The position numbers were made by a program, and so were the translations under genes. This document shows, piece by piece, positions 5,174 through 34,982 of a DNA stretch of 64,000 nucleotides (the stretch's first letter is position 1; every line of letters starts with the position of its first letter). The DNA comes from a bacterium (GTDB taxonomy: Bacteria; Patescibacteriota; CPR2; UBA1875; JAJYID01), in contig JAJYLR010000001.1 of assembly GCA_021787535.1 (NCBI GenBank), forward strand, positions 147,648-211,647. Reading direction: 5' to 3'. Under the pieces are notes generated by a model that saw only the letters and a program-made list of their open reading frames with translations, was not told where the DNA came from and searched no databases.

Positions 5174-5179
5174 TTATTA

Positions 5180-5204
5180 GATTCTGGACAAGCCAGAATG
5201 ACAG
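5180..5204 (+). repeat. GAATGACA-hairpin repeat (GATTCTGGACAAGCCAGAATGACA)
   Basis: 7-bp stem ATTCTGG/CCAGAAT; followed by tandem GGAAATTG array 5221-5257 and degenerate copy 5291-5316. Confidence 0.85.
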
Positions 5205-5332
5205 ATTGAAGATTGTCTCATTGAGGATTGATTGGAAATTGGAAATTGTGAATTGGAAATTAAAAGTAAAGGGATTCCTCGACTTGTCCTTAACAGGAAG
5301 TCGCTCGGAATGACAAAAAGGAGACTAAATTT

Positions 5333-5728: not shown

Positions 5729-5740
5729 TTAAGAATTTCT

Positions 5741-5844
5741 ATTCAAATCCCAATTCAAAAATTTCTTAAATTAAAAATTGGACATTCATTAGGAATTAGG
5801 AATTCTTAATTTTTAATTGGATTCCCGACTTCTCGGGAATGACA
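5741..5844 (+). repeat. tandem AATT/GGAATT-type octamer array followed by hairpin repeat GGATTCCCGACTTCTCGGGAATGACA
   Basis: compensatory stem variant (CCCG/CGGG instead of CTGG/CCAG). Confidence 0.8.
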
Positions 5845-5941
5845 AGGGAGAATTTGTATTTTTGGCTAATGCTTGACCGGGTAATAAAACTTAAAATATT
5901 TTTGTTTCATTCAGACCATTAAGTGTGGTAATCTAGAAAAT

Positions 5942-6898: not shown

Positions 6899-6912
6899 CC
6901 AAGGGCATATAT

Positions 6913-7485
6913 TTGATTAGAAAACTTTTAAAGCTGGTTTTAATAGTAGTTGTTTTGGCTGTTGTCTTTCTAGCCGGCGCAGCCCTTTATCTCTCGCCGC
7001 AAGACAAGCTGGAAAAAACAGATTGTATAGTAGTGATCTCGGGCGGGGATACTGACGCTAGGCTTGCCGAAGGCATTAAACTTTATAATGAAAAATATGC
7101 GCCGAAAGTTCTATTTTCCGGCGCAGCTGCCGAGGGTACGGTTTCAAACGCTTCAGCAATGAAGAACATAGCTATCCGAAACGGTTTGCCGGCCGGGGAT
7201 ATCTTAATTGAAGAAAATTCTAAAACTACCGAGGAAAATGCCGAGTATACAGGTAAAATCATTCGTGCCGCAAATTTTCACAGCATAATACTCGTAACTT
7301 CTCCGTATCATCAGCGCCGGGCATACGAGGCCTTCAGACAGGCGCTGGGCAGAGATTTTAAAATTATCAATCATTCAGCCACAGATAGGACATGGCGAAA
7401 GGCCGACTGGTGGGACAACTCTCAAGCGAGAATTCTGACAATCGGCGAAATCTTGAAAAATCTATACTTTTTAGTTAATAAGTAA
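6913..7485 (+). CDS. DUF218/YdcF-ElyC family protein
   Basis: TM anchor then IVVISGGDTDARL...LFSGAAAEG...ENSKTTEENAEYT...VTSPYHQRRA typical DUF218; TTG start. Confidence 0.55.
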   Translation: MIRKLLKLVLIVVVLAVVFLAGAALYLSPQDKLEKTDCIVVISGGDTDARLAEGIKLYNEKYAPKVLFSGAAAEGTVSNASAMKNIAIRNGLPAGDILIEENSKTTEENAEYTGKIIRAANFHSIILVTSPYHQRRAYEAFRQALGRDFKIINHSATDRTWRKADWWDNSQARILTIGEILKNLYFLVNK

Positions 7486-10648: not shown

Positions 10649-12613
10649 ATGAATTCAAATAAACTAAGGCAAAAATTTCTGAAATTTTTTGAGGAGAAGG
10701 GGCACAAGGTTATCTCTTCAGCTTCGCTCGTGCCTGAAAACGACCCCTCGGTGCTTTTTACAACCGCCGGCATGCATCCGCTCGTGCCATATCTCATGGG
10801 TGAGAAACATCCGCTTGGGAAGAGATTAGTTGACATTCAGAAGTGTATTCGCACCGGTGACATCGACGAGGTTGGCGATATTCAGCACATGACATTCTTT
10901 GAGATGCTTGGCTACTGGTCGCTTGGCGATTACTTTAAAAAAGAATCCATTCACTACACCTATGATTTTTATACAAAAGTTCTGGGCATTGACGGCGATA
11001 AAATCTCTGTGACGGTGTTTAAAGGAGATAATGACGCACCGTTTGACCAAGAGTCGTATGACACTTGGAAAGCAATTGGTATTCCTGAAGATAGAATATA
11101 TAAATATCCTAAAAAAGAAAACTGGTGGGGGCCGGTCACAGATACGGGACCGTGCGGACCTTGCACTGAAATGTTTATCGATACCGGACTAGAATCCTGT
11201 GGGCCGGACTGCGGACCTTCGTGCAACTGCGATAAATTCGTCGAAATAGGCAACAACGTTTTCATGGAATATTTCAAAAACCACGAAGGGAAGTTCGAGA
11301 AGCTGGAGCAGAAAAATGTCGATGTCGGACTTGGCTTTGAACGGCTGGTAATGATTGTGAATGAGCTCGATACCGTATTTGAGACGGATCTTTTCACCGG
11401 TATTATCGGGAAAATTAAAGAGCTGGCTTCTCCTTCTGTCATTCCCGCGCAGGCGGGAATCCAGACGGAATCTAAGGAAAATTCCATCCGTGTAATCGCC
11501 GACCATATGCGGGCGGCAACGATGGCGATAGCGGATGAGGTAGAGCCGTCTAATCTGGATAGGGGTTATGTGGTTCGCAGGTTGATCCGTCGCTCTATCC
11601 GTCACGGAAGACTTATCGGAATTGAGGGCAAATTTACGGCAGAAATAGCCAAAGAAGTAGTGAAGTCACTAGGCGATGTCTATCCTGAACTTAAAGATAA
11701 TGAAGAATTTATTTACTCGGAACTTGATAAGGAAGAGGAGAAGTTTAATGACCTAATCATTAAAATAAAACCTAAGGAGAATAAAAGAGTAGAAATAAGA
11801 AAAAGGCTAGAAAAAGAAATCATAGATGCTGATAAAAAATGGATACTCGATGATACAAAAGTTGCTGGTATCAAATTTGATGACTTGAACGAGGAATATC
11901 AGAAGAGCCCAAGAAAATTCGTTACAACTGTTTCTGGGGCGATGGCCTTTAGGATGGAAACCACACATGGTTGGCCCAGTGATTTGTATTTTGAAGATAT
12001 TGCCGAGAAATTGATTAGTGAAGAACCAAGTAAAAGTATTACTATCGAAAAAAAAATTAGTGAAGAAAAAAAGGCGTATGAAGAGTTTGTAAAAAAGCAC
12101 CAGGAATTATCCAGAAAAGGCGCCGAGAAAAAGTTTAAAGGCGGGCTTGGTGAGGTTTCTGAGAAAACCATTAAATATCACACGGCTACTCATTTATTGC
12201 ACGAGGCGCTCAGACAGGTGCTTGGCAATCACGTCTACCAGAAAGGGTCGAATATTACAGCAGAAAGAATGCGGTTTGACTTTACCCATCCGGACAAAAT
12301 GACCGATGAAGAAAAAAAGAAGGTCGAAGATATTGTAAACGAACAGATTCAGGCCAAGTTACCGGTTATTGAAACCATTACGACCGTGGAAGAGGCGAAA
12401 GGTGAGGGAGCGATCGGACTTTTTGAAGCCAAATACGGAGAAAAAGTGAAAGTTTACTCGATCGGCGGGCCACTCGATTCGCCTGATGCATTTTCCAAGG
12501 AAATCTGTGGCGGCCCGCATGTCAAAAACACCGGCGAACTCGGCCATTTCAGGATTAAAAAAGAGGAATCAAGTTCTAAGGGAGTAAGGCGCATTAAAGC
12601 CGTTTTGGAGTAA
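10649..12613 (+). CDS. alaS: alanyl-tRNA synthetase (short form lacking C-Ala domain)
   Basis: class II AlaRS catalytic core (FTTAGM, GDIDEVG) and editing domain HxxxH (HTATHLLHEALR), CGGPHV; 654 aa; contains in-frame palindromic repeat at 11438-11466. Confidence 0.9.
   Translation: MNSNKLRQKFLKFFEEKGHKVISSASLVPENDPSVLFTTAGMHPLVPYLMGEKHPLGKRLVDIQKCIRTGDIDEVGDIQHMTFFEMLGYWSLGDYFKKESIHYTYDFYTKVLGIDGDKISVTVFKGDNDAPFDQESYDTWKAIGIPEDRIYKYPKKENWWGPVTDTGPCGPCTEMFIDTGLESCGPDCGPSCNCDKFVEIGNNVFMEYFKNHEGKFEKLEQKNVDVGLGFERLVMIVNELDTVFETDLFTGIIGKIKELASPSVIPAQAGIQTESKENSIRVIADHMRAATMAIADEVEPSNLDRGYVVRRLIRRSIRHGRLIGIEGKFTAEIAKEVVKSLGDVYPELKDNEEFIYSELDKEEEKFNDLIIKIKPKENKRVEIRKRLEKEIIDADKKWILDDTKVAGIKFDDLNEEYQKSPRKFVTTVSGAMAFRMETTHGWPSDLYFEDIAEKLISEEPSKSITIEKKISEEKKAYEEFVKKHQELSRKGAEKKFKGGLGEVSEKTIKYHTATHLLHEALRQVLGNHVYQKGSNITAERMRFDFTHPDKMTDEEKKKVEDIVNEQIQAKLPVIETITTVEEAKGEGAIGLFEAKYGEKVKVYSIGGPLDSPDAFSKEICGGPHVKNTGELGHFRIKKEESSSKGVRRIKAVLE
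11438..11466 (-). repeat. hairpin repeat inserted in frame in alaS (reverse orientation; encodes VIPAQAGIQ)
   Basis: GTCATTCCCGCGCAGGCGGGAATCCAG = reverse complement of CTGGATTCCCGC...GCGGGAATGAC family consensus. Confidence 0.75.
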
Positions 12614-12695
12614 ACATTTACCAAGGTATGCCAAGGTACAGTACCTTGGCAAGATTATAAGATAAATTGCAGCTCTCTCTATTCGCTAAATCTTA

Positions 12696-12725
12696 TTGGA
12701 CAATATGGGCTAAAGTCTTTACAAT
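12696..12725 (+). promoter_or_regulatory. promoter TTGGAC-18-TACAAT upstream of ftsA-like gene
   Basis: read from sequence. Confidence 0.4.
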
Positions 12726-12734
12726 GAAACAGTA

Positions 12735-14003
12735 ATGAAAGAGTTAATTTCGAACGTTTCGAATGCCCTAAAAAGGAGGCCCAAAGACCCCGTTTATGTC
12801 GCTCTTGATGTAGGAACGGAGTTTGTTAAGGCCTTTGTCTTCAAAATCGAAAACGGCAAAGCGGTCATTAGCGGGGTAGGGCGGCAGCGCCAAAGATTAG
12901 GCGATATGCACGGCGGAGCAGTAACGGATATTTCTGGTGTGGTTGAAAACTGCGCCAAAGCGCTCGATAGAGCAGAGGAAATGGCCGGTGTAATCAGCGA
13001 CTTTGCAGTTATCGGTATCGCCGGCGAACTGGTCAAAGGGACAACGACTACCGTTCATTATGAGCGCCTGAAACCGAAAACAAAGATTGATTATAACGAA
13101 CTGAAAAACATTGTGAACAAAGTCCAGTGGAAGGCCTTCGATGCTGCCCGCCAGCAGCTGGCATGGGAAACCGGTCACGAGGAAGTTGATGTGAAATTGG
13201 TCAATGCCTCGATTGTCGATGTTAAAATTGATGGCTACAGAGTGACTAATCCAATGGGCTTTCAAGGCAAAGATGTCAGTATCGGAGTGTTTAACGCCTT
13301 TGCGCCGCTTGTGCATCTGGGCGCACTTCAGACAATTGCATCTGACCTCGATCTTGAACTTCTTTCCATTGCTGCCGAACCATATGCGGTGGCTAAGAGT
13401 GTAGGCAGTGAGGAAGCGGGAGAGTTCAGCGCTATCTTTATCGATATTGGCGGCGGAACTTCTGATGTGGCGGTGGTCCGAAACGGCGGTCTGGAAGGAA
13501 CGAAAATGTTTGCCATTGGTGGCCGGAGCTTTACCAAAAGATTATCGCAAGTTTTAAACTTATCCTTTTCCAAAGCTGAAAACATCAAACTTGCTTATTC
13601 AAAAGGCGAGCTTGAAAAAGAAAGCGAGAAAACAATCAAAGAAGCCCTGGAGGCGGATGCTGACGTTTGGCTTTCCGGTATTGAACTTTCGCTTAGCGAG
13701 TTTTCAAATATTGACCTTCTGCCGTCGAGAATCATGCTTTGCGGCGGCGGCTCGGCGCTGCCTGAGATTAAAAAAGCTTTGGAAAAACCGGGTTGGTACA
13801 AGGATCTGCCCTTTGCCAAAAAACCGCAGGTGAGTTTTATTAAGCCCGAGGAAGTTAATCATTGTGTAGATAAAACCGGCCAGATCAAAAATCAGCAGGA
13901 CATCACTCCGATGGGGTTAGCTAATCTGGCTTTGAATATTGAAGAAGAGGAAGGAGTCTTGCCGGGGATATTGACCAAGGTGGCAAAGGCGATGCAAAAT
14001 TGA
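12735..14003 (+). CDS. ftsA: FtsA-like actin-family ATPase (FtsA/PilM superfamily)
   Basis: VALDVGTEFVK N-terminal phosphate-1 motif, DIGGGTSDVAVV phosphate-2, 422 aa as FtsA; no ftsZ adjacent. Confidence 0.5.
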   Translation: MKELISNVSNALKRRPKDPVYVALDVGTEFVKAFVFKIENGKAVISGVGRQRQRLGDMHGGAVTDISGVVENCAKALDRAEEMAGVISDFAVIGIAGELVKGTTTTVHYERLKPKTKIDYNELKNIVNKVQWKAFDAARQQLAWETGHEEVDVKLVNASIVDVKIDGYRVTNPMGFQGKDVSIGVFNAFAPLVHLGALQTIASDLDLELLSIAAEPYAVAKSVGSEEAGEFSAIFIDIGGGTSDVAVVRNGGLEGTKMFAIGGRSFTKRLSQVLNLSFSKAENIKLAYSKGELEKESEKTIKEALEADADVWLSGIELSLSEFSNIDLLPSRIMLCGGGSALPEIKKALEKPGWYKDLPFAKKPQVSFIKPEEVNHCVDKTGQIKNQQDITPMGLANLALNIEEEEGVLPGILTKVAKAMQN

Positions 14004-14093
14004 TAAGAAATGTCGGAAATGTTAGAGTTGTTGGAGATGTTGGTTGGAGCAAAACAAACAATTCCATCAACTAGAACAATTTAAACAAATCAA

Positions 14094-15728
14094 ATGGATA
14101 ACAAAATATTATATCTGGAAATAGACGAGGAGATAACTTCGGTCATTGATCGGCTAAAAAAGACAGCTGAAACCGAGATTCATTTAGTGGTTCCGAAAGA
14201 AGCGGCGCTGCTACAGAGTATTGTGAATTTAAAACTGCTCAAGAAACAGGCCGACTCTTTAGGCAAAGAGATCCAAATTATCACTCACGACAAAGTCGGC
14301 CGAAATCTGGCCGAGCAAGTCGGCATTCACTCGGTATCTAAAATAGGCGAACCGGTCAAGAAGGCGGCTTCTGTTATGGCAGAACCGGCAAATGAAATTA
14401 AATTTAAAGAACGTGAGCCGGTGGTGCAAGATACGCAGGAAGTAGTTTTCAAAAAAGGGTCGTTGCTTGATAAAGATGAACCTTTGAAAGAACCGGCTAA
14501 AGAAGCAAAACCGGTCAAAAGCGGGAATAAAGAAGTTCAGAAAAAGAAAATGAGCGAGTTACTCCCTAAGTTTCCGCACAAAAAATTTCTTATCATCGCT
14601 TCCGTTGTCGGCTTGGTACTTTTAATTTTTCTCTATATCTTTATTCCAATGGCAAATATTACTTTGAAAATAGCCGCCGAACAGAAGAATATGAAAGCTG
14701 ATTTTACTATTGATAAAAACGCAAGCGGTATCGATAACGGCTCTCAGAAGATACCCGGAGATCTTATTTCAGTTAATAAATCAGAGACTAAAACTTATCA
14801 GGCGACCGGCAAGAAAAATGTCGGCACTCAAGCTTCAGGTACCGTTACCGTGAAAAATACTTATAGTACTGTCTCGCAGACTTTGGTAGCCGGCACTAGA
14901 TTTGAGGCAAACGGGCTAGTCTTTAGAACTCAGTCCGATGTGAGTGTGCCGGGCTACAGCGATTCCGGCGGAGGTAATATCACACCTGGGACGGCTAATG
15001 TCAGCGTTTTAGCTGACAGTCCTGGCGATCAGTATAATATCTCGTCATCGGATTTTCGCATTCCGGCTTTTGCCGGTACGGCCGAATATGACAAGATGAC
15101 CGGGGCAAGCGCCGGCCAAATGTCGGGAGGTACTACAAAAAATGTTAATGTAGTCACGGATTCTGACATCTCAAATGCCAGAAATTCCTTTGCCGGTGAC
15201 GCCAAAAGTGATATTCAAAAAGATGGGCAAGATAAGATGAAATCCGGTGAAACCGTGGATGACAAAGCTCAGAAGATGCAGGTTAGCAGCATTACGGCTT
15301 CAAAAAACGCCGGTGATGAAGCAGATAACTTTACGCTTTCAGCCAATGTATCTTATGAAGCCCTTGCTTACAAAAAAGACGATCTCAACAAGCTTGTGTA
15401 CGATAATTTGAAAAGCCAGACCGGTCCGGGCAAACAAATTCTCGAGGATAAACTTGATAATGTTGATATCACAGTGAATAATGTCAATCTCGAAGAAGGT
15501 ACGGTTTCCGGCCAAGCAGCTGCCTCGGTTCATTTGGGCACTAAAATCGACCAAAATCAGGTCAAAACCGAAATAGCGGGGGAGGGTGAGCGTAAAGCCA
15601 AAGCATATCTTTCCGGCCTTGACGGAGTTGATAGCGTAGATATTAAATATTTTCCGGGCTTTATCAAAAGTATTCCTCGCATCAAAAGCCATATCTATAT
15701 CAAAACGAACTTCGAAGAAAAACAGTAA
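14094..15728 (+). CDS. hypothetical bitopic membrane protein (cytoplasmic N-domain, one TM, large Ser/Thr/Gly-rich extracytoplasmic domain)
   Basis: TM helix FLIIASVVGLVLLIFLYIFIP at ~aa 165; no known motif. Confidence 0.4.
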   Translation: MDNKILYLEIDEEITSVIDRLKKTAETEIHLVVPKEAALLQSIVNLKLLKKQADSLGKEIQIITHDKVGRNLAEQVGIHSVSKIGEPVKKAASVMAEPANEIKFKEREPVVQDTQEVVFKKGSLLDKDEPLKEPAKEAKPVKSGNKEVQKKKMSELLPKFPHKKFLIIASVVGLVLLIFLYIFIPMANITLKIAAEQKNMKADFTIDKNASGIDNGSQKIPGDLISVNKSETKTYQATGKKNVGTQASGTVTVKNTYSTVSQTLVAGTRFEANGLVFRTQSDVSVPGYSDSGGGNITPGTANVSVLADSPGDQYNISSSDFRIPAFAGTAEYDKMTGASAGQMSGGTTKNVNVVTDSDISNARNSFAGDAKSDIQKDGQDKMKSGETVDDKAQKMQVSSITASKNAGDEADNFTLSANVSYEALAYKKDDLNKLVYDNLKSQTGPGKQILEDKLDNVDITVNNVNLEEGTVSGQAAASVHLGTKIDQNQVKTEIAGEGERKAKAYLSGLDGVDSVDIKYFPGFIKSIPRIKSHIYIKTNFEEKQ

Positions 15729-15743
15729 TCCTTAAAATTTCCA

Positions 15744-16193
15744 ATGACCAATCAATTTTCAAATTTTAAATTTCCAAAAAATATTAAGGCAGTAGCGCTT
15801 GATGTCGGGGAAAAAAGGATCGGAATTGCATACAGTGAAGATGGCATATTTGCGTTTCCTTTGAAAACCGTGCCTGCCGGTAATATTGCAGCGGAGATTT
15901 TGCAAATTGCAGAGGGAGGATCCCTTGAACGCATTATCATCGGGCTTCCCAGGAATATGGACGGATCGCTGGGATTTCAGACTGATAAGGTCAAGTCATT
16001 TGTGAGTGATAATCTGGCAAAATATCTGGATTTAGTGGAATATATCGATGAGACGGCTACAAGCGTTGAAGCGGCAGATCTTATGCGGGTTGAAGGCAAA
16101 GATCCCCGTAAAAATCCAGGGCTAATCGATGCGTATTCGGCTAAAATTATCCTTGAAGATTGGATTAGCAAAGTGAAAGGAAAAAACAAATGA
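15744..16193 (+). CDS. ruvX: Holliday-junction resolvase-like YqgF/RuvX
   Basis: ALDVGEKRIGIAYSE... RNase H-like YqgF signature, 149 aa. Confidence 0.8.
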   Translation: MTNQFSNFKFPKNIKAVALDVGEKRIGIAYSEDGIFAFPLKTVPAGNIAAEILQIAEGGSLERIIIGLPRNMDGSLGFQTDKVKSFVSDNLAKYLDLVEYIDETATSVEAADLMRVEGKDPRKNPGLIDAYSAKIILEDWISKVKGKNK

Positions 16194-17239
16194 ATTTCAG
16201 TGAAGTCCCGGAAGTTAAAGAAAACAAACTGCTTACAAAAAAGCGCATTCTGCTTTTTCTCCTGGGCTTATTTGTTATTTTAGTTTTATTAGCCGGCGTA
16301 TTAGCTGCTCAATATATTCATTCGGCTCTTTACGAACCGGTCTCTTCGAGTAATGAGACTGTAAAATTTACGATCACAAAAGGCGAGGGAACCCGCAATA
16401 TTGCCGAGGAACTAGAGAAGCAACATCTGATCAAGAGTTCTCTTGTATTTATCGGTTATTTGAAGTATTCAAACCGTAAGATAAGCGTTCAAGTCGGGGA
16501 TTATGCGATTCATAGAAATTCTACTATGATTCAAATTATTGACAAATTTGCCAAAGGGGATGTGATAACTACTAAAATAACCATTCCGGAGGGATGGACG
16601 GACCAGCAAATTGAAGACTATCTAGTGAAGAAAGGCATCACAACTCAGGCGGATTTTAAAAGCGCTCTCAAAAAGGATTACGGCTTTGATTTCCTAAAAA
16701 AGAGTCCGGACGGTTCTCTTCAAGGTTTTCTCTATCCTGATACATATATTCTCTCATCCAAACCCACAGCCGAGGAAGCCATTTTTAAAATGCTTGCGGA
16801 ATTCCAAAAAAAAGCTGATCCTGAGATTAGAGCCAAAATGGGCGCAGAGCAGCTGTCTTATTATCAAGTTTTGACTTTGTCATCAATAGTTGAAAGGGAA
16901 GTTCAGACCAAGGCAGATAAAAAGGCGGTGGCAGGAATATTTTTAAACCGCCTAAGTATAGATATGAATCTGGATTCTTGCGCCACAGTGCAATATGTTC
17001 TGGGCACGAACAAAAAAATTCTCTCAGATCAGGATATAGCTGTAGACTCGCCTTATAATACTTACCTCAACAAGGGACTGCCGCCGGGTCCAATAGCCAA
17101 TCCGGGCATGGATTCTATCGAAGCGGTCCTCAACCCGGCAAAAACAGACTACTTCTATTTCTTTACCGGCAAAGACGGCAAAACTTACTTTTCAAAAACA
17201 GCTGAAGAGCATGAGGCAAAAAAGGCCAAATACTTGTAA
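16190..17239 (+). CDS. mltG: endolytic murein transglycosylase MltG (YceG family)
   Basis: N-terminal TM, TIPEGWTDQQIEDYL and GLPPGPIANPG YceG motifs. Confidence 0.8.
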   Translation: MNFSEVPEVKENKLLTKKRILLFLLGLFVILVLLAGVLAAQYIHSALYEPVSSSNETVKFTITKGEGTRNIAEELEKQHLIKSSLVFIGYLKYSNRKISVQVGDYAIHRNSTMIQIIDKFAKGDVITTKITIPEGWTDQQIEDYLVKKGITTQADFKSALKKDYGFDFLKKSPDGSLQGFLYPDTYILSSKPTAEEAIFKMLAEFQKKADPEIRAKMGAEQLSYYQVLTLSSIVEREVQTKADKKAVAGIFLNRLSIDMNLDSCATVQYVLGTNKKILSDQDIAVDSPYNTYLNKGLPPGPIANPGMDSIEAVLNPAKTDYFYFFTGKDGKTYFSKTAEEHEAKKAKYL

Positions 17240-17325
17240 TTGTAAGATGTTCAAATTATTGGAATTGTTATATTCAGATTAAGCTGACAACTCCGTTATA
17301 TTCAACATTTTAAACGATCTATTGA

Positions 17326-17355
17326 TTGACAAAAGACATGTATTTCGGTTATACT
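17326..17355 (+). promoter_or_regulatory. promoter TTGACA-17-TTATAC(T) upstream of LysM-CHAP gene, with ~90-nt hairpin-containing leader
   Basis: read from sequence. Confidence 0.45.
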
Positions 17356-17445
17356 CATGTGCGTATCTTTATGGGCTTGCTTGTTTGATACAAGAAAAAG
17401 AAAGTCTCAAAACTTGAGATAAAGTTTGGACAAATCTTTCAAAAA

Positions 17446-18609
17446 ATGAAAAAGATCAGAACATTTTTATATGGGCGGAAAAATATTTTTTCGCTGGCAA
17501 GATTGCAGAATGAGGGTAATATACTAAGTTGGCTTTATAGAACAGCTGCTTCTTCCTGTAGTATTTTTAGAAGGCCTACCCGCCTTTTTTCTCATTATGC
17601 AGTGCTTTTTATATTTGCTTTAGTACTGATGATGGGTATTTTAGTGAAACCGGCAGACAATAAACGAGGCAAGAACCCTTATCTTTTCAACACGGCCGAT
17701 GAACAGGTCAATGAAATGACCTATAGGCAGTCTGTGGCGACAATCGGCAGTATAGTTGACGACAAAATCGGCCAGCAGGCATATGAACTAGCTCAAAAAA
17801 AGAATACTGCTCCGGTCCTCGCGGTAGCCGGCAATGGATTTGTAGCCCAGCCCACTTTGTCTGAGGCAAGGCAGCCAACCGATAAGCCCAAAAATGATGT
17901 TCAGGAATATATCGTGCAAGATGGTGATACTCTTTCGATTATCGCCAGCAACTATGGTTTAACCACCGATACACTTAGATGGGCGAACGGTATTGATGAT
18001 CCTGATTCTGTCAAACCTGGACAGAAACTTCTCATCCCGCCGGTAAATGGCGTGCTTTATGTCGCTCAAGCTGGGGATACGACTGATTCTATCGCTGGCA
18101 AATTTAGCGCTAGTGCTTCCATGATTGTTGCTCAAAATGATTTGTATGGCGAGGATATAAAAGCTGGAATGCGCATCATGGTCCCTGACGGTATCGGACC
18201 GGAAGTGCCAAAACCGGCTCCGGCACCGGAACCTGAGCCATCGAGTGTACCGCAACCGGTCATGGTTGCATCGGCAACGCCTAAATATTATTCTGGCTCT
18301 TCATATAACAGATTCCCCTACGGCTGGTGTACTTACTACGTTGCCAGCCGCAGAAACGTGCCGTGGAGTGGTAATGCAGGTGACTGGTACTGGAATGCCA
18401 GATCTATGGGTTACTCGGTAGGCAGAGCGCCGGCTGCGGGAGCAATTATGGTGACCGGCGAATCCGGCTGGGGGCATGTGGCGTATGTTGAAGGCGTAAA
18501 CAGCAACGGCAGCTGGACTGTATCGGAAATGAACTATAACGGCTGGGGCGTAGTTGATCATAGAACTATTTCTCCGGGGCAGGTGCCGCTGATAGGATTC
18601 ATTTATTAA
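17446..18609 (+). CDS. cell-wall hydrolase with two LysM domains and C-terminal CHAP domain
   Basis: two LysM repeats (YIVQDGDTLSIIA..., YVAQAGDTTDSIA...), CHAP catalytic Cys (GWCTYYV) and His (GHVAYVEGV). Confidence 0.7.
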   Translation: MKKIRTFLYGRKNIFSLARLQNEGNILSWLYRTAASSCSIFRRPTRLFSHYAVLFIFALVLMMGILVKPADNKRGKNPYLFNTADEQVNEMTYRQSVATIGSIVDDKIGQQAYELAQKKNTAPVLAVAGNGFVAQPTLSEARQPTDKPKNDVQEYIVQDGDTLSIIASNYGLTTDTLRWANGIDDPDSVKPGQKLLIPPVNGVLYVAQAGDTTDSIAGKFSASASMIVAQNDLYGEDIKAGMRIMVPDGIGPEVPKPAPAPEPEPSSVPQPVMVASATPKYYSGSSYNRFPYGWCTYYVASRRNVPWSGNAGDWYWNARSMGYSVGRAPAAGAIMVTGESGWGHVAYVEGVNSNGSWTVSEMNYNGWGVVDHRTISPGQVPLIGFIY

Positions 18610-18658
18610 GTAATTGTTGTAATTGCTAGCATTGTTCGAGATGATGGATTTGTTATAA

Positions 18659-20014
<1,356 letters not shown>

Positions 20015-20017
20015 CAA

Positions 20018-20737
20018 ATGAAAAAATCGGAAAAATTTGAGGGCATTAATGCCTTGAAAGAGGCAGGTTTGCCGATGGTGCCTTTTACTGTTCTTGAAGA
20101 GAAAATTTTTGAAAAACAAATAAAAGACTTCTTAAAAAAGACTAGGTCAAAAAAATTTATCATTAGGACGGGCAGCACCAAATCAAGTAATTTAATAGGC
20201 ACGCCGGGGTTGGTTGACGCGGAACTTGAAAGGGATAAGGAGAAAATTCAGAAATGGTTTGCTGACGGCTATTTAATCATGGCGATGGCTTATCAAAATA
20301 TTTACAGAAACTCGCATAACTTTAATGTTATGAGATTAGATAAAAAAATTGTTGTGGAAGTTGTTGGCAGGGGTTTTGTATCAAGGGATTTGTGTTTTGA
20401 CGGCCACCTTCACGAGGAAATAGTTTTTGAACCGATAACTTTTGATATTCTCAAAAGAAAAGTTATCAGTCCGGCAAGATATCAAAAATCGAGAGAAAAA
20501 AAGATGAGACAGTTTGGCATAGGGGAGTTAAAGAAAAATAAAAGTTTCTTGTTATCCGATGAAGAATACATTCCTTTAGACGAGCAAAAGATCAAGTTTA
20601 TCAAAGATTCTTATCCTAGATTATCCCGGGCAGCAAAAAAGATGGGTTATAATAACTTTGTTGCAAGTTTTGGATATATGGAGAGGGTCGGGAAAGAACA
20701 TGAACCGATTTTTTGGGATATTTATAGAGTCAGGTAG
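20018..20737 (+). CDS. hypothetical protein
   Basis: 239-aa ORF immediately after obg; no recognisable motif. Confidence 0.35.
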   Translation: MKKSEKFEGINALKEAGLPMVPFTVLEEKIFEKQIKDFLKKTRSKKFIIRTGSTKSSNLIGTPGLVDAELERDKEKIQKWFADGYLIMAMAYQNIYRNSHNFNVMRLDKKIVVEVVGRGFVSRDLCFDGHLHEEIVFEPITFDILKRKVISPARYQKSREKKMRQFGIGELKKNKSFLLSDEEYIPLDEQKIKFIKDSYPRLSRAAKKMGYNNFVASFGYMERVGKEHEPIFWDIYRVR

Positions 20738-20856
20738 AATAAAAAACAGTTACTTAATCGGAAAATTTAAGTTTACCTTAGAATTATGATAACTAAAATT
20801 GTAAGTTAAATATAGTGGTCTAACCTTATATTTGTTTACAAAAAACAAAAGAGAAA

Positions 20857-20891
20857 GGGCTTTCCGGTTCGACTCGGAAAGCCCTTTTTTT
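20857..20891. terminator. bidirectional rho-independent terminator (GGGCTTTCCGG..TCGGAAAGCCC flanked by A- and T-runs)
   Basis: 10-11-bp stem, TTTTTTT downstream, A-run upstream. Confidence 0.7.
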
Positions 20892-20977
20892 ACACCTTGC
20901 AAAGGAGAGCTATATAAAAGAGGTGTATTGGTAGCCCCAACCTCCTTTATAACGCTAATACCTTTTGGTCGCTTCAT

Positions 20978-21496
20978 TTAGGAACTTTGCATGCCGTGAT
21001 AGCCGTGTTGAAAGCCAAGCTTCAACATGACAGCTTTGGCGGCCGTCCTGGCTGGTCCCCGACACCACCATTGGATAGAGTTCTTATCGAACCCGATCTC
21101 TCTCAGTTTCATCTCTGGAGAGATGACAGTAAAGCCGTCCGCCCTGATCATTTTACTGACCATGGGAAGTTGCAGAAATGGCTGGGCAACCGGGACGACC
21201 TCGGTGATACCGTTTGGAATGAACAATTGGTCTCGGACAATCGGCCAAACTTCCTTTGAACCCAGGTAACTCCCATCTTCTGGTAATTCCACAACTAGAT
21301 CAGATGTCAGACCTACCCACTTGAGGGCAAGATCTACTTCCCATTGATTCCCGAATAGGAATTCAGTGTCAGGATTCTCTTCAGCAATCAATTTAATCCT
21401 GTAAGCTATTCGCTGATTACATGGGTTAGGTTCACTGGGCTCCAATGCAAATGAAAACCCGATAATACCTATCTTCTTCAGCCCCTTCTCCATCAC
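20978..21496 (-). CDS. hypothetical protein (GC-rich, minus strand)
   Basis: 172-aa ORF on opposite strand with markedly higher GC than flanks; bidirectional terminator downstream. Confidence 0.4.
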   Translation of the reverse strand: MMEKGLKKIGIIGFSFALEPSEPNPCNQRIAYRIKLIAEENPDTEFLFGNQWEVDLALKWVGLTSDLVVELPEDGSYLGSKEVWPIVRDQLFIPNGITEVVPVAQPFLQLPMVSKMIRADGFTVISPEMKLREIGFDKNSIQWWCRGPARTAAKAVMLKLGFQHGYHGMQSS

Positions 21497-21706
21497 TGCC
21501 TCCTTTCACGAAGGGTTTTTTGAATGAGCACCTGCTAGATTCAAATGTGCAGGATGTTCATTATAACTGTTTTAAACCAATTTGTCAATCATTTAAGCAT
21601 AAAAACATTGACTGAACGGCATAAAGGTGATAAGATATGATATTCGGTATTACCGTGCCAACTTAAAAATTAAATATTATTAGAGCACCACTTCCTGAAA
21701 GGAGGA

Positions 21707-22828
21707 GTGATGAAGGGCTTTCTTAAAAAGCTAGTGAGCCGTAAGGCAAAACTAGTGTATGTTAACTCATTTGCTGTTTATCGTTTCGCCGTCTCAGGGA
21801 TAATAGTTGCGGCGTGGTATTCAGGTGAATGGAATTGGGCTGTAGGACTGCTGTTGTCCGGAGTGCTGAGCGATTATATAGATGGATTCTTGGCACGTCT
21901 CTGGAAAGTGACCACGAAGTTCGGTTTTTGGTTTGACATGTTAAGCGATCGTTTCCTTCTCATGTCACCATTTATAGCCGAAACACTTCGCGGGAGATTA
22001 CCTTGGTATATTTTACCAGGTCTTGTCGTTTTGATAATCGTGACAGACATTTTGGCGATAAGCTCAAAAAATGTCAGGGCTCCTCAGGCGATTTACTGGT
22101 TTTCTTTGTTTGCCACTGTCTATGTACTGCTGACAACGGAGACTTCCTTCATCTATACATTACCTTGGCTTGTTTTGTGGGGTTTGATGTCGATGATCCC
22201 TGCCTGCGAACCCGCAAAAAGGAAGGAAGGCGCTCAAGCAGTAGAGGAAATACTGGGAGTCATTCCGGAGAAGTATCGTAACCAAATTCCAAACATGATG
22301 AGTTGGTTTCGGATCATTATTGCTCTTCCATGTTATTTGCTGGTAATGGGTGATCACTGGATCACGGCAAATATAGTTGTAACACTGGCATGGATAAGCG
22401 ATATGTATGACGGTGAGGTAGCAAGATACTTAGGTATAGCAAATCCCAAAAACCCAATAGATGTTGTGGGTGATGGAGTATTTGTAGCACCCCTGGTTTT
22501 TGCTCTTGCCAGAAAGGGTTTAATATCGTGGGGGCTTGTTGCTCTGGTTGTCGTTTTGTGGCTTGCTGCGATGATTATTCCTGAATACACAAAGGGGATT
22601 ATCAAGCAGATATTCATCCGAATATTGCCACTGATGTACATCATCTCAGCAACATATATTAGTTACACCTTTCTTAATCAGGTGGTTCCAACCGTATACT
22701 CCTTAATTATCATTGTTATGGCCGGAGCTATTGCAACAATACTGAAAAGAGAGAGGTTATATCAACTCATATGGCAGGGCAAACGCGCTCAGTACATTGA
22801 CCTGCCCGGTAACAAAAGAACTAATTAA
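21707..22828 (+). CDS. membrane protein with tandem CDP-alcohol phosphatidyltransferase domains
   Basis: two copies of D-G-x2-A-R...G-x3-D-x3-D motif (DYIDGFLARLW...GFWFDMLSD and DMYDGEVARYL...), multiple TM helices. Confidence 0.5.
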   Translation: MMKGFLKKLVSRKAKLVYVNSFAVYRFAVSGIIVAAWYSGEWNWAVGLLLSGVLSDYIDGFLARLWKVTTKFGFWFDMLSDRFLLMSPFIAETLRGRLPWYILPGLVVLIIVTDILAISSKNVRAPQAIYWFSLFATVYVLLTTETSFIYTLPWLVLWGLMSMIPACEPAKRKEGAQAVEEILGVIPEKYRNQIPNMMSWFRIIIALPCYLLVMGDHWITANIVVTLAWISDMYDGEVARYLGIANPKNPIDVVGDGVFVAPLVFALARKGLISWGLVALVVVLWLAAMIIPEYTKGIIKQIFIRILPLMYIISATYISYTFLNQVVPTVYSLIIIVMAGAIATILKRERLYQLIWQGKRAQYIDLPGNKRTN

Positions 22829-22943
22829 CTGCCCGCTAAAACGTTTCGGAAAAGATTCGGCTCGCATTAGCGGGTCTTTTCTTTTGGCTAAATTACTTTT
22901 ATGAAAGGGCAATCTGTGCTAGAATTTGATTAATTTTTATTGT

Positions 22944-23035
22944 GTCATCTCGAGCGAAGTCGAGGGATCCCTTAAATACAGAAAGAAAGGGATTTCTCCG
23001 CTTATCACTAGCGTGATGTCGGTCGAAATGACAAA
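22944..23035 (+). repeat. ~90-bp MITE-like element with TIRs TGTCATCTCGAGCG / CGGTCGAAATGACA
   Basis: terminal inverted repeats plus internal palindromes (CTCGAGCGAAGTCGAG, GGGATCCC). Confidence 0.6.
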
Positions 23036-23044
23036 GAAGGCAAA

Positions 23045-25957
23045 ATGAGTAACAAATATGATCATAAAAAAATAGAATCCAAGTGGCGCGATATTTGGGA
23101 GAAAGCCGGTCTTAACCGGACTGATTTAAAGTCAGTCAAACCCAAACACTACAATCTCGTCATGTTTCCGTATCCGAGCGCTGAGTATATCCATCTCGGC
23201 CATATTTACTCTTACTCCGGAGCTGATGTTTATGGGCGATACCAGAGATTGAAAGGCAAAAATGTCTTTGAGCCGATCGGTTTTGATTCATTTGGCCTGC
23301 CGGCTGAAAACTTTGCTATAAAAAAAGGCATTCATCCGGAAAAGGTGATTGATCATGCAATCGATCAATCTACGAGACAGCTGAAAGAAGCCGGCTTTAT
23401 GTTCGACTGGTTCCGGGAAGTGATCACTTCAAAGCCGGATTACTACAAATGGACTCAGTTGCTTTTCTTAAAACTATATGATCAAGGGTTGGCATATCGG
23501 AAAGAAGCGCCGGTGAATTGGTGCCCGAGCTGCAAGACGGTTTTGGCAAATGAACAGGTGAAAGATGGTTTGTGCGACCGTTGTGACACTGAGGTTGTAC
23601 AAAAGGAAATGAAGCAATGGTTTTTCAAAGTAACCGATTACGCCGAGAGATTGATAAAAGACTTGGACAAAGTTGACTGGCCTGAATCGTCGAAAATTAA
23701 ACAAAGGAACTGGATCGGCAGAAGTGAGGGTGTGGAGATGGATATGCAGATTACAGACTCTAAAGAAAAGTTTTCGGTATTTACCACTCGCATTGATACG
23801 GTTTACGGCATGACATATGTGGTGCTGGCACCGGAACATCCATTAGTTAATAAAATCACGACTGACAAACAGAAGAAAGAAGTTGAAAAGTACAAGATTC
23901 AGGCGCAGAAACAGACAGAGATCGAGAGGCAGTCGCTCGAAAAGGATAAAACAGGGGTATTTACAGGATCGTATGCTATAAATCCGTTTACCGGTGAGAA
24001 GGTGCCCATTTGGATAGCTGATTATGTACTTTTTGGTTATGGAACCGGTGCTGTGATGGCGGTACCGGCTCACGATGAGCGCGACTTCGAATTTGCCAAA
24101 AAGTACAAGCTTCCTATTATCCAGTCTATTGCGCCTCATAGTGTGGATACAAAAAATCCTCCGAGAAAAGGTAAAACAGATACTAGAAGAAAAGTAGTAC
24201 ATGTGATTTTGGAAAATGATAAGGGCGAGGTACTTACTTTAAATCTCAAGGGTCAGGAATGGGGTGATAATAAGCCCAAAACACTCATCATCGGCGGTAT
24301 AGAAGATAGGGAATCTCCGGAAGAAGCCGCCATGCGGGAGATCGAGGAAGAAACCGGTTACACAGATGTCCAGATTTCAGAGGTTTACCCGATTGAATTT
24401 CATGCTGAGTTTTTTGCCGCCCATAAAGATGTTAATCGTTATGTAGAAACAGTGGGTGTTTTCTGTCAACTGAAGTCTGAGAAAAAAGTTCCTGTCAGTG
24501 AAAATGAAAAGAAGCTGCATGAAATTATCTGGGTTAAGAAAAAAAATCTTCTTTCTTCCGTAACCATCCCTGACGATATTTTTCTAGCGAAAGCTTATGT
24601 AGAAAAAATTGGCAGCTACACTGAATATGGTGTACTTATCAATTCTGGCAAGTTCACCGGCCTTATCTACGAAGAAGCTAAAAAGAAAATGGCTGATTGG
24701 CTGGAGAAGAAAGGCATTGGCTCTCGCAAAATTAATTACCGTCTTCATGATTGGTCTATTGGACGACAAAGATACTGGGGAGCGCCGATACCGATCATTC
24801 ATTGCGACAAATGCGGGGTAGTGCCGGTTCCGGAGAAAGATTTGCCGGTTAAACTGCCGGAAAATATCAAAGATTTCCGGCCGAAAGGGACGGGGAAAGG
24901 TCCTTTGGCTAGCGTATCTGAATTTGTAAACGTAAAATGTCCAAGATGCGGAGGTAAAGCAGAGCGAGAAACTGATACCATGGATACTTTTGTCGACTCC
25001 AGCTTTTATTTCCTTCGTTATCCGAGTACGGGGGATGATACTCAAATGATGGAGCCAAAGGTTACCAAAAAATGGCTGCCTGTTGATATGTATGTCGGTG
25101 GTGCTGAACATGTAACCATGCATTTGCTTTATGCCAGATTTATCACGAAGGCCTTACATGATGCCAAACTGATTACTTTTGATGAGCCATTTATGAAGCT
25201 TCGCCATCAGGGATATATTTTGGGTCCGGATGGTAAAAAGATGTCTAAGTCAAAGGGCAATGTTGTTAATCCGGACGGCGTTGTCAAAGAGCATGGAGCG
25301 GACGCTTTCAGAACCTACATACTCTTTATGGCTCGGTTTGAAGACGGCGGTCCGTGGAACCCCAAAGGTTTAGTCGGTGTCAGCCGATTTCTGGAAAAGA
25401 TTTGGAGAATTGGAATTGGGTTGGATTCCCGTCTGCACGGGAATGACAATAAGGGTAATTGGCCGGACGTGTCTAGCACAGAGGTGCAGGCAAAACTTGC
25501 CAGAACTATCAAAAAGGTTGGGGAAGATATTGAGAGCTTTAAATTTAATACAGCCGTAGCTTCGCTTATGACGCTTATGAATGGCATCTCAGTTGAGAAA
25601 AGACCAGATGAAGATTGGATTAGTAAAGGAGACTTTGAAAAACTTCTGATTATTCTTGCGCCGTTTGCGCCATTTATAACCGAAGAACTTTGGGAAAAGC
25701 TTGGTAACAAGGATAGTATTCATGTAGAGAAGTGGCCGGCTTATGATGAAAAACTGATCCAGGAAGAGGCGGTGACAATCGCTGTACAGGTTAACGGCAA
25801 AGTCCGCGATCAGCTGGTTGTGAATGTCGATAGTGCAAAAGACGAAGTTTTTGAACTGGCAAAGGCAAGTGAGAAGGTGCAGAAGTATTTGTTAGATAAA
25901 GAGGTTAAAAAGGTTATCTATATCGAAGGTAAGCTACTTAGTCTTGTCGTGAACTAG
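23045..25957 (+). CDS. leuS: leucyl-tRNA synthetase with internal Nudix-domain insertion
   Basis: HIGH (HLGH), TTRIDT, AVPAHDERD, KMSKS; ~165-aa insertion (aa ~363-528) containing perfect Nudix box GGIEDRESPEEAAMREIEEETGY; second small in-frame palindromic-repeat insertion at 25423-25448. Confidence 0.9.
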   Translation: MSNKYDHKKIESKWRDIWEKAGLNRTDLKSVKPKHYNLVMFPYPSAEYIHLGHIYSYSGADVYGRYQRLKGKNVFEPIGFDSFGLPAENFAIKKGIHPEKVIDHAIDQSTRQLKEAGFMFDWFREVITSKPDYYKWTQLLFLKLYDQGLAYRKEAPVNWCPSCKTVLANEQVKDGLCDRCDTEVVQKEMKQWFFKVTDYAERLIKDLDKVDWPESSKIKQRNWIGRSEGVEMDMQITDSKEKFSVFTTRIDTVYGMTYVVLAPEHPLVNKITTDKQKKEVEKYKIQAQKQTEIERQSLEKDKTGVFTGSYAINPFTGEKVPIWIADYVLFGYGTGAVMAVPAHDERDFEFAKKYKLPIIQSIAPHSVDTKNPPRKGKTDTRRKVVHVILENDKGEVLTLNLKGQEWGDNKPKTLIIGGIEDRESPEEAAMREIEEETGYTDVQISEVYPIEFHAEFFAAHKDVNRYVETVGVFCQLKSEKKVPVSENEKKLHEIIWVKKKNLLSSVTIPDDIFLAKAYVEKIGSYTEYGVLINSGKFTGLIYEEAKKKMADWLEKKGIGSRKINYRLHDWSIGRQRYWGAPIPIIHCDKCGVVPVPEKDLPVKLPENIKDFRPKGTGKGPLASVSEFVNVKCPRCGGKAERETDTMDTFVDSSFYFLRYPSTGDDTQMMEPKVTKKWLPVDMYVGGAEHVTMHLLYARFITKALHDAKLITFDEPFMKLRHQGYILGPDGKKMSKSKGNVVNPDGVVKEHGADAFRTYILFMARFEDGGPWNPKGLVGVSRFLEKIWRIGIGLDSRLHGNDNKGNWPDVSSTEVQAKLARTIKKVGEDIESFKFNTAVASLMTLMNGISVEKRPDEDWISKGDFEKLLIILAPFAPFITEELWEKLGNKDSIHVEKWPAYDEKLIQEEAVTIAVQVNGKVRDQLVVNVDSAKDEVFELAKASEKVQKYLLDKEVKKVIYIEGKLLSLVVN
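25411..25448 (+). repeat. octamer (GAATTGGAATTGGG) plus hairpin repeat GGATTCCCGTCTGCACGGGAATGACA inserted in frame in leuS (encodes ...LDSRLHGNDNK)
   Basis: same family as intergenic copies. Confidence 0.75.
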
Positions 25958-25992
25958 ATTTTCTGCTATAATTTCCTTTGTGTCCGCCTCAT

Positions 25993-26066
25993 TGTCATTC
26001 TCGGGCTTGACCCGGGAATCTATGAGTTAAATTTAAAAAATAGATCCTGTTTTCACAGGAATGACA
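25993..26066 (-). repeat. reverse-orientation hairpin repeat (TGTCATTCTCGGGCTTGACCCGGGAATC) plus half-copy ending GGAATGACA that supplies yceD ATG
   Basis: family consensus. Confidence 0.7.
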
Positions 26067-26525
26067 GAAAAAGTAAATTTGAAAATGACCAAAAAACCTT
26101 CAGATAACATAGATAATTCGGTTTATATTAACGTTAAAGATTTTCTGATCAAAGGGCCAGTAGGCGATACGGAAACGATTCCAATTCATGAAACATTCGA
26201 AAAATCGCTCGATCCGGAAAATACGCTTAGGTCTTTCGAAGGCAGTATCAAACTGACTCTGCTTGAGGAAGAGATTTTAGCAGAGTTCAGCGTCGAATAT
26301 TTAGCAAAAACGATTTGTGTCAGATGTTTGAAAAGGTTTGATCGAGAAGGCAGTCTGGCATTTGAAAGAGTATACTTGCTTGGTAGAAGAACGGCTGCGG
26401 ACGGCGAACTGATTGTCGGCAAGGATTTCCAAATTGAAGTTGGTGGGCCGATACTCGAAGAAATTAACTTCGATATACCGATGAAACCATTATGTAAAAC
26501 AGATTGTCAAGGATTTAACAAATAA
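26061..26525 (+). CDS. yceD: YceD/DUF177-family protein
   Basis: position upstream of rpmF, C-terminal CxxC...C..C motif (ICVRCLKRF...LCKTDCQGF); start ATG lies inside repeat terminus GAATGACA (alt. start 26085). Confidence 0.6.
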   Translation: MTEKVNLKMTKKPSDNIDNSVYINVKDFLIKGPVGDTETIPIHETFEKSLDPENTLRSFEGSIKLTLLEEEILAEFSVEYLAKTICVRCLKRFDREGSLAFERVYLLGRRTAADGELIVGKDFQIEVGGPILEEINFDIPMKPLCKTDCQGFNK

Positions 26526-26799: not shown

Positions 26800-26907
26800 C
26801 CAAACGAATTCCAATTTCCAAATTCAACACGTTTCTAATTTGAATATTGAGATTTGTTTGTATCTTGCATCTTGGTGATTGTATCTTTTAAAACGGGAGT
26901 TTAAACA

Positions 26908-28227: not shown

Positions 28228-28290
28228 TGTCATCCTGAACTTAATTCAGGATCCAGATCGTATAGATTCCGGATCAAGTCCAGAATGACA
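28228..28290 (+). repeat. composite long-form repeat copy 2
   Basis: matches 766-830. Confidence 0.85.
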
Positions 28291-34920: not shown

Positions 34921-34982
34921 TGTCACTGCGAACTTAATTCAGAATCCATAAAATAGATTCCGGATCGGAGTCCGGAATGACA
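34921..34982 (+). repeat. composite long-form repeat copy 3 (compensatory CGGAG/TCCGG stem)
   Basis: matches 766-830 with covariation. Confidence 0.85.

Follow-up and report, generated by a model that had tools for sequence, protein, structure and literature searches.

The closest described counterpart of the repeats studied here is the Neisseria Transformation Sequence (NTS), which forms a hairpin and is bound and cut, only as single-stranded DNA (ssDNA), by SsnA, a single-domain GIY-YIG protein of 94 amino acids (aa; cd10448); cutting is governed by an upstream GTC, and the base that matters most for binding is the C that follows the palindrome (PMC11893778). According to the same report, NTS and SsnA modulate (limit) transformation in Neisseria, the ssnA genes of many phyla are flanked by such motifs in an NTS-ssnA-NTS arrangement, an ssnA homologue is present in 81% of the genomes with more than 200 Ssn-related motifs (SRM), and the dRS3 repeat is the target of the IS110-family recombinase of the Neisseria Nf phage (PMC11893778). 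In this study, we analysed a 64,000-nt stretch of bacterial DNA (the window; positions refer to it unless another sequence is named), in which an initial annotation had noticed repeats inside the alanyl- and leucyl-tRNA synthetase (AlaRS and LeuRS) genes alaS and leuS. Both segments can be assigned by sequence to the NTS/dRS3/SRM hairpin family, and the repeat family left unnamed by the annotation is thus the NTS/SRM hairpin, which is associated with Ssn GIY-YIG nucleases. The source organism is likewise assigned to a Patescibacteria (Candidate Phyla Radiation, CPR) lineage near candidate divisions WS5 and CPR2; homologues of the window AlaRS come from CPR2, WS5 and Patescibacteria.

The alaS copy agrees with the NTS consensus CGTCATTCCCGCGMAVGCGGGAATCYRG, which contains dRS3, at 27 of 28 bases, and an intergenic copy at 35503-35530 agrees with it at 26 of 28. 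The leuS copy fits the dRS3 pattern (ATTCCC-N8-GGGAAT) and is 93% reverse-complementary to the alaS copy over 27 nt. The GTC and the C that are critical for SsnA are the invariant flanks of the window family. As ssDNA, the alaS copy is predicted to fold with -13.0 kcal/mol (z -5.0), the copy at 35503 with -10.3 kcal/mol (z -4.7) and the leuS copy with -8.7 kcal/mol (z -3.7). The degenerate SRM pattern HGTCWYN(0-2)YYVSBRHN(0-5)WNVSBRGN(0-2)RNCYNB matches 11437-11464 and 25993-26023 only, with 0.14 matches expected. No Rfam family matched the hairpins.

A search for the GAATGA arm with a complementary stem showed that a single oriented hairpin family has 18 or more copies in the window, with single units of about 26-31 nt and pairs of about 70 nt. 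The family reads (R)GATTC-stem-loop-stem-GAATGAC(A) on one strand and GTCATTC...GAATC(C) on the other; flanks and stem base do not vary, apart from single-base departures in a few copies, and the inner stem is variable yet complementary. Among the stem variants are CCCG/CGGG, CTGG/CCAG, CCGG/CCGG and a long-loop form; the window and its four relatives together contain six or more distinct stems, showing compensatory variation. The motif ATTCCCG-N6-CGGGAAT with at most one mismatch occurs five times in the window versus 0.02 times expected from shuffles, and ATTCCC-N4-12-GGGAAT four times versus 0.06; when only the flanks were searched, 18 matches were obtained, 11 of which form at least three further Watson-Crick pairs, versus 3% of shuffled interiors. 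The hairpin, with its covarying stems, is a real repeat family in which the hairpin itself is selected. Most copies in the window are intergenic, often right after stop codons, and inverted pairs are present at 25993/26040, 28228/28264 and 39071/39115. An AGGG that follows several window copies was considered as a target site and rejected, as 132 exact copies from elsewhere showed no conservation of it.

The alaS and leuS copies were originally described as lying in frame, in opposite orientations and in different frames, and sequence and translation confirm each of these points; the sequences are where they were placed to within a few bases, the alaS repeat ending at 11464 and not at 11466 and the leuS segment starting at 25407 and not at 25411. 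In alaS, the 27 nt of GTCATTCCCGCGCAGGCGGGAATCCAG (11438-11464) supply codons 264-272 and are translated in frame as VIPAQAGIQ, and the extended unit shared by this copy spans 11434-11464. In an alignment of 22 AlaRS sequences, most orthologues read KELAKx--xEKSxRIIADH and have nothing at the site, where the window protein has about 12 extra residues; AlaRS chains in the PDB show a gap of 5-9 residues opposite the hairpin-encoded segment, and a hairpin-type peptide was found in only 2 of 120 AlaRS relatives. The AlphaFold model of the window AlaRS (mean pLDDT 71.6) falls below a pLDDT of 50 exactly at residues 264-273, which form a loop between the helices 250-259 and 273-295. The syntenic relative L001, an independent assembly, carries the same element at the same alaS site, as GTCATTTCCGCGGAGGCGGGAATCCAG read VISAEAGIQ.

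Other inserts were observed in AlaRS proteins. At the same loop, the alaS gene of the relative L002 (10779-10815 of that sequence) holds an unrelated nested palindrome, TTGCAGAGGGTGCCACCCTCTGCACCCTCTGCAA, read CRGCHPLHPLQG, which was rejected as a member of the repeat family because no second copy was present in the DNA compared and which may be a footprint of hairpin processing. The insert at this loop in a WS5 AlaRS (P0004) was also rejected as a further hairpin, as no clear hairpin could be recognised. In addition, an extra segment of 50-60 aa at AlaRS residues ~365-480 (11740-12092) is common to the window and L002 (P0002) only, unlike the hairpin, which the window AlaRS shares with L001 (P0003) only; sharing with different relatives hints at a mosaic alaS gene.

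In leuS, the hairpin, of which GGATTCCCGTCTGCACGGGAATGACA (25423-25448) is a part, follows two heptamer-like units, and the full segment reads IGIG-LDSRLHGND-NK in frame (residues ~789-804), the IGIG units occupying the place of MYEIFE in the closest LeuRS orthologue. This orthologue (L005, 76% identity, syntenic) has WRMYEIFEGSW where the window has WRIGIGLDSRLHGNDNKGNW. The segment is lacking in the six closest orthologues (L005 and five others), and a hairpin-type peptide occurs in only 3 of 120 LeuRS relatives. More distant LeuRS structures have a variable loop at the insert site, which in Thermus thermophilus is of similar length. The LeuRS genes of L006 and L007 (64% identity; two assemblies from another lineage) contain a family hairpin in the same loop and the same frame; an additional half copy, LDSRLRGNDKRGGND, accompanies it, and the full-plus-half layout of the window copy at 36520-36563 recurs in the L006 insert. 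The orthologue alignments, chosen beforehand as the test, together with the rarity of the peptides and the low-pLDDT AlaRS loop, show that both segments are insertions, as proposed, and not conserved AlaRS or LeuRS core.

The initial annotation had further counted uvrB and uvrC, with alaS and leuS, as four host genes, and this count stands: seven in-gene copies are present in the window, one in alaS, one in leuS, two in uvrB and three in uvrC (Table 1). The uvrB and uvrC copies represent a sister stem variant, GATTCTGGACAAGCCAGAATGAC. The combination of a long-loop and a CTGG hairpin seen in uvrB is also present in L072, L087, L093 and L119, and it surrounds a GIY-YIG gene in L046; the uvrB pair has the look of a GIY-YIG cassette's two ends with no gene in between. 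The window UvrC is only 517 aa long, its NCBIfam profile alignment consists of two blocks with about 165 middle profile positions missing, and the first of its three hairpin inserts is located at the junction of these blocks. A second repeat family, (ATTGGAA)n, forms heptamer arrays at 2068-2094, 5231-5261, 5788-5804, 15754-15778, 26807-26825, 36441-36471 and 39007-39055; they are mostly intergenic and often beside hairpins, one is translated within uvrB, and two such units precede the leuS hairpin.

Table 1. Host genes and hairpin copies in the 64-kb window
Feature	Position	Strand	Remarks
alaS, alanine--tRNA ligase, 654 aa, short CPR type	10649-12613	+	NCBIfam NF002436, 782 bits vs cut-off 529
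Hairpin repeat TGTCATTCCCGCGCAGGCGGGAATCCAG in alaS	11437-11464	+ (published NTS orientation)	read (S)VIPAQAGIQ, residues 263-272
leuS, leucine--tRNA ligase, 970 aa, internal NUDIX domain	23045-25957	+	TIGR00396, 1012 bits vs cut-off 548
GAATTGGAATTGGG, two heptamer-like units in leuS	25407-25420	+	read (R)IGIG; directly 5' of leuS hairpin
Hairpin repeat in leuS	25421-25448	- (NTS orientation; + strand = TTGGATTCCCGTCTGCACGGGAATGACA)	read LDSRLHGND, residues 793-801
uvrB, 724 aa	37751-39925	+	NF003673, 1024 bits; profile alignment broken at residue 406
Composite in-frame insert in uvrB, residues 417-465 (49 aa)	39001-39143	+	(AATTTCC)n array and two hairpins
Long-loop hairpin in uvrB	39071-39103		part of composite insert
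Hairpin GGATTCTGGACAAGCCAGAATGACA in uvrB	39115-39139		read DSGQARMT
uvrC, 517 aa	48492-50045	+	host of three hairpin copies
Three hairpins in uvrC	49214-49238, 49478-49502, 49718-49742		in frame; one reading is KDYGQARMT
Intergenic copy AGATTCCGGATCAAGTCTGGAATGACA	803-829	+ (GATTC...GAATGAC reading on + strand)
Intergenic copy AGATTCTGGACAAGCCAGAATGACA	5179-5203	+	6 nt past stop codon; then (ATTGGAA)n array 5231-5261
Intergenic copy GGATTCCCGACTTCTCGGGAATGACA	5819-5844	+
Inverted pair TGTCATTCTCGGGCTTGACCCGGGAATCT, spacer, GATCCTGTTTTCACAGGAATGACAG	25993-26068		leuS-yceD spacer
Inverted pair	28228-28254 and 28264-28290		rnc-smc spacer
Intergenic copy AGATTCCGGATCGGAGTCCGGAATGACA	34955-34982	+
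Intergenic copy TGTCATTCCCGCGGAGGCGGGAATCCAG	35503-35530	+	97% identical to alaS unit over 31 nt
Intergenic copy AGATTCTGGTCAAGCCAGAATGACC	35632-35656	+	upstream of trmD
Intergenic copy AGATTACCGTTTTTACGGGAATGATA with repeated 3' half CGGGAATGACA	36520-36563	+
Intergenic copy AGATTCTGGATAAGCCAGAATGACG	51216-51240	-

Comparison with relatives bears on the age of the copies. Over the 34 kb in which L001/L005 is syntenic with the window, two copies are present in the relative, versus about 12 in the window. The leuS-yceD spacer, which holds a hairpin pair in the window, is empty in L005 (12878-12903 of L005 against window 25958-26060); the hairpin-less spacer reads TGTCAT|GAAAAAG, so that the terminal hexamer of the element is retained. 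In the rnc-smc spacer, L005 has degenerate orthologous copies, the copy upstream of trmD has an orthologous copy in L005, and in further orthologous spacers copies are present with differing stems. Relatives also carry copies within other genes: in L002, an inverted pair lies near the N-terminus of a UvrD-type helicase with an intein (3651-7325 of that sequence; Hint and intein-splicing Pfam matches), and in L006, a copy inside PrmC is read VIPAEAGIQ. The contrast in copy number, the filled and empty spacer, and the differing stems indicate that the spread of the family was recent and lineage-specific, with turnover.

The exact 23-mer GATTCTGGACAAGCCAGAATGAC was found in at least 119 stretches of species-representative genomes, its hosts being Nitrospirota, many Patescibacteria classes, Gammaproteobacteria metagenome-assembled genomes and others. 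At these loci, long open reading frames (ORFs) contain 28 of the 83 family copies in Patescibacteria, versus 8 of 126 in Nitrospirota. All ten of the longer host ORFs that were scanned with Pfam matched known families, namely ATP-dependent DNA ligase, ArgRS (twice), GMP synthase (GuaA), TrmD, TatD, FemAB, a GT2 glycosyltransferase, a TPR protein and an NPCBM-domain protein. The inserts in the ArgRS genes of two different Patescibacteria (L119 4888-6699 and L011 5055-6791) are at the same catalytic/DALR domain junction. The exact 28-mer of the alaS type was present on at least 120 metagenome contigs, where 21 of 125 copies are within ORFs having at least 60 aa on either side; Pfam supports LeuRS, two further class I (Ile/Val/Leu-type) synthetases, UvrD, a methyltransferase and a GT1 glycosyltransferase as hosts, and two high-GC host ORFs without a Pfam match may be spurious.

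Reading frames are used strictly. Viewed in gene orientation, 12 copies of the CTGG variant encode DSGQARMT and a single copy uses the other open frame, the third frame holding a stop; in the WS5/CPR2-like clade, the CCCG variant encodes LDSRLxGND (3 of 3) or VIPAxAGIQ (3 of 3). Each of the five open frames is represented in mixed metagenome contigs. Every in-gene copy identified is in a stop-free frame, these copies having been identified as ones inside uninterrupted ORFs. The suggestion that the four host genes reflect a genome-wide phenomenon is supported by the density of copies in the window, by the in-frame UvrD, PrmC and LeuRS copies in relatives, and by the share of in-ORF copies in other Patescibacteria.

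The hairpins are also associated with small GIY-YIG genes. At 5 of the 119 loci with the exact 23-mer, a PF01541 gene of about 99 aa stands beside it, giving six genes (L046, L073, L075, L077 and L098, with two in L098; E 1e-10 to 1e-14). A family hairpin is at the 3' end in four of the six; among these four, the exact 23-mer is seen in three and an inverted upstream copy in two. Three of the 23-mer-linked genes (...ILDKPE*) take their stop codon, TGA, from the GAATGA arm, and 50 of the 120 GIY-YIG homologues listed have the C-terminus I[LP]DKPE, so that the hairpin supplies their stop codon. On 7 of the 120 metagenome contigs, the exact 28-mer adjoins a GIY-YIG gene of 90-95 aa; in five of these seven cassettes, one to three copies in NTS orientation precede the start, and the stop is followed at 7-30 nt by CTGGATTCCCGCCTGCGCGGGAATGACA or a variant differing in one base, so the alaS copy has the upstream orientation and the leuS copy the downstream orientation. 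Overall, the hairpin-flanked GIY-YIG genes measure about 90-105 aa, and their size, single domain and hairpin flanks match the published description of SsnA. Pfam returned only PF01541 for the hairpin-linked proteins, and NCBIfam and the PDB no specific family, the best PDB match being UPF0213 protein BH0048 (E 0.015). Viral contigs contained only three exact copies, giving no sign of a phage vehicle. The GIY-YIG homologues (P0241-P0360) are mostly recorded only on contigs shorter than 2 kb, which fits assemblies breaking at multi-copy hairpin-flanked cassettes, and some of their gene calls run through upstream hairpins, adding N-terminal VILACPES or SFW... peptides.

Based on these data, we consider it probable that oriented NTS/SRM hairpins, with a link to an SsnA-type nuclease, have multiplied in this Patescibacteria genome and that some have been kept in frame within genes as near-neutral loops. 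The family would have multiplied mostly as solo or paired hairpins between genes, with some copies inside genes, and an Ssn-type nuclease encoded in another part of the genome may have helped to make the copies on ssDNA. Selection would then remove those in-gene copies that break the frame, bring the TGA frame of the GAATGA arm or disturb folding, and the survivors would be those in tolerant surface loops or at domain junctions, translated as short hydrophilic loops that are presumably neutral or nearly so for the enzyme.

Several observations weigh against this explanation. We know of no mechanism by which an Ssn protein would copy a hairpin, Ssn having so far been shown only to cut ssDNA. 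A phmmer search of the ORFs of the window and of L001-L007, with Pfam scans in the window, found no GIY-YIG gene other than the UvrC N-terminus, and none of the 120 listed GIY-YIG homologues is on a contig of the size of the window. Of about 18 copies, the published SRM pattern fits two only; it fits neither the leuS copy nor the CTGG and CCGG variants. No target-site duplication was seen at the copies. Finally, the alaS element is identical between the window and L001 at 25 of 27 positions versus 11 of 21 in the immediate flanks, and insertion sites recur across lineages, both of which may mean function or targeting and not neutrality.

A function of their own is the first alternative to be weighed, in which the in-gene hairpins are kept as ribosome-slowing mRNA or ssDNA structures at domain borders, as processing sites, or as built-in nuclease or recombination sites controlling how incoming DNA replaces essential genes. 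Besides the conservation of the alaS hairpin relative to its flanks, this is favoured by the strict use of reading frames, by the filling of the same LeuRS site in a 64%-identical relative, and by the position of copies at domain junctions (catalytic/helical in AlaRS, before the anticodon-binding domain in LeuRS, and catalytic/DALR in the ArgRS of two genomes); moreover, NTS and SsnA modulate transformation in Neisseria (PMC11893778). Neutral insertions, however, are likewise expected to survive at domain junctions and loops, both orientations are used inside genes, the same sequences are mainly intergenic across phyla, and the inserts are sporadic among orthologues (2/120 AlaRS and 3/120 LeuRS). 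We therefore regard a retained function as unlikely.

It is very unlikely, in our view, that the repeats are REP/BIME-like elements (repetitive extragenic palindromes and bacterial interspersed mosaic elements) moved by a Y1 transposase (RAYT, the REP-associated tyrosine transposase, or IS200/IS605-type), or targets of an IS110 recombinase, with the GIY-YIG genes as mere neighbours. The size, the hairpin, the inverted pairs and the position past stop codons do resemble REP and BIME, orthologous sites carry different stems as if copies attracted new copies, and dRS3 is a known phage recombinase target (PMC11893778). What lowers the likelihood of this mobilisation, however, is that every gene directly adjoining the exact hairpins encoded a small GIY-YIG protein (13 genes at 12 loci examined, where Y1 and IS110 genes were not searched systematically); about two thirds of these 13 genes show the published layout, in which a hairpin coincides with the stop codon or closely follows it and inverted copies are often present upstream. 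In addition, the conserved head of the family is GTC and not the GTAG typical of REPs, and a Pfam scan of 20 small or unassigned ORFs in the window found no GIY-YIG, Y1 or IS110 protein, the sole transposase being of the IS481 DDE type, without an adjacent hairpin. That the segments are native enzyme parts, chance palindromes or repeat-made assembly artefacts is hardly credible: loops do vary in length among distant homologues, including that of the T. thermophilus LeuRS, but the alaS copy matches a repeat of another phylum at 27 of 28 bases, pattern matches far exceed expectation (5 versus 0.02), close orthologues lack the segments, the frames are intact, and the alaS element recurs in the independent L001 assembly as does the LeuRS-site element in the L006 and L007 assemblies.

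Some further features of the window and its genes were observed. The window LeuRS contains a NUDIX-like domain at residues ~380-510, with weak matches to RNA pyrophosphohydrolase in NCBIfam, and the precomputed presence of PF00293 on most of the top 120 CPR LeuRS homologues shows this domain to be a widespread CPR feature. The IS481-type transposase gene (55148-56035, minus strand) is flanked by tRNA-Leu(gag) and a tRNA-Val/Val/Leu(cag) cluster (region 54755-57070), and each tRNA-Leu is followed by one copy of a 99-nt direct repeat (54985-55083 and 56950-57048; 87% identity). The window (1-64000) has a positive GC skew over its whole length and nearly all genes are on the + strand, which suggests a single replichore arm with strong strand bias.

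The multiplication of NTS/SRM hairpins in this genome, if correctly read, extends to the CPR a pairing of hairpin and nuclease that was described only in 2025, and the filled and empty orthologous sites, with a burst in one lineage, provide comparative evidence for the mobility of the hairpins. Core enzymes can carry such repeats in frame, as conserved Rickettsia proteins carry palindromic elements, and the inserts mark out naturally where synthetases and repair proteins tolerate added sequence. The recurring metagenome peptides VIPAQAGIQ, LDSRLRGND and DSGQARMT are explained, as are probably some spurious ORFs, and the finding may help to account for the GIY-YIG homologues recorded only on very short contigs. 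The question is also raised of whether single-strand cut sites in essential genes affect recombination or transformation. A bolder idea, which we put forward only as a doubtful speculation, is that a GIY-YIG single-strand nuclease may replace the transposase in a working mobile hairpin system of Patescibacteria that routinely inserts itself into coding DNA, the in-gene hairpins acting as built-in cut sites that control the recombination of incoming or replicating strands. If true, a layer of self-marking and recombination control would be laid on core genes (aminoacyl-tRNA synthetases, UvrB/C/D and ligase) in organisms that depend on DNA uptake.

Among known systems with repeats in coding sequences, the palindromic GC clusters and 'byp' elements of yeast mitochondria are short mobile hairpin-forming inserts in essential coding sequences, and the byps are skipped by the ribosome. 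The in-gene copies of the window family are stop-free and therefore need no bypass, unlike the yeast byps. The Rickettsia palindromic elements (RPE; Ogata et al. 2000, reviewed in PMC2229807) are Rickettsia-specific, measure 105-146 bp and end in terminal inverted repeats; in R. conorii, 19 conserved protein genes contain one in frame, and the elements are believed to be neutral or slightly harmful, the gmk product with its insert being still active (PMC2229807). RPE and the window elements are alike in being palindromic repeats that occur between genes and, at tolerated sites, in frame within conserved protein genes. The window elements differ from RPE as single hairpins of 26-31 nt (pairs of about 70 nt), found with identical sequence in Patescibacteria and other phyla and tied to a GIY-YIG gene, and RPE membership fails on size, structure and host. 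The 107-bp form of Correia/NEMIS and the ERIC and YPAL miniature inverted-repeat elements fused to ORFs (PMC2229807) differ in their length of 100-170 bp, TA target duplications and terminal inverted repeats, none of which was seen here. REP/BIME with RAYT (Nunvar 2010; Ton-Hoang 2012), as outlined in PMC11893778, share with the present family the short imperfect palindromes, the inverted clusters, the position after genes and the small nuclease gene flanked by its own inverted repeat; in that outline, however, the enzyme is a tyrosine transposase and not GIY-YIG, the head is GTAG and not GTC, and REPs are by definition extragenic.

The NTS/SRM system with SsnA remains the nearest relative, with a near-identical sequence, oriented GTC and C flanks, a predicted ssDNA hairpin, many copies, inverted pairs and a cross-phylum distribution; in other genomes, the hairpins also bracket small single-domain GIY-YIG genes, with an inverted copy right after the stop. 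The differences are that the Neisseria repeats cluster between genes whereas window copies are also within genes, that several stem variants (CCCG, CTGG, CCGG and long-loop), most of them missed by the SRM pattern, coexist in the window, and that no ssn gene was seen there. PMC11893778 makes no mention of Patescibacteria or CPR nor of copies inside coding sequences or in frame, and the open-access literature searched yielded no report of such hairpins in CPR genomes or coding sequences, PMC11893778 being the only match to the sequences and peptides. The NTS/dRS3/SRM sequence family is already known, and what looks new is its presence in a CPR host near WS5/CPR2 and its frequent in-frame copies in housekeeping genes, with strict frame use and recurrent sites.

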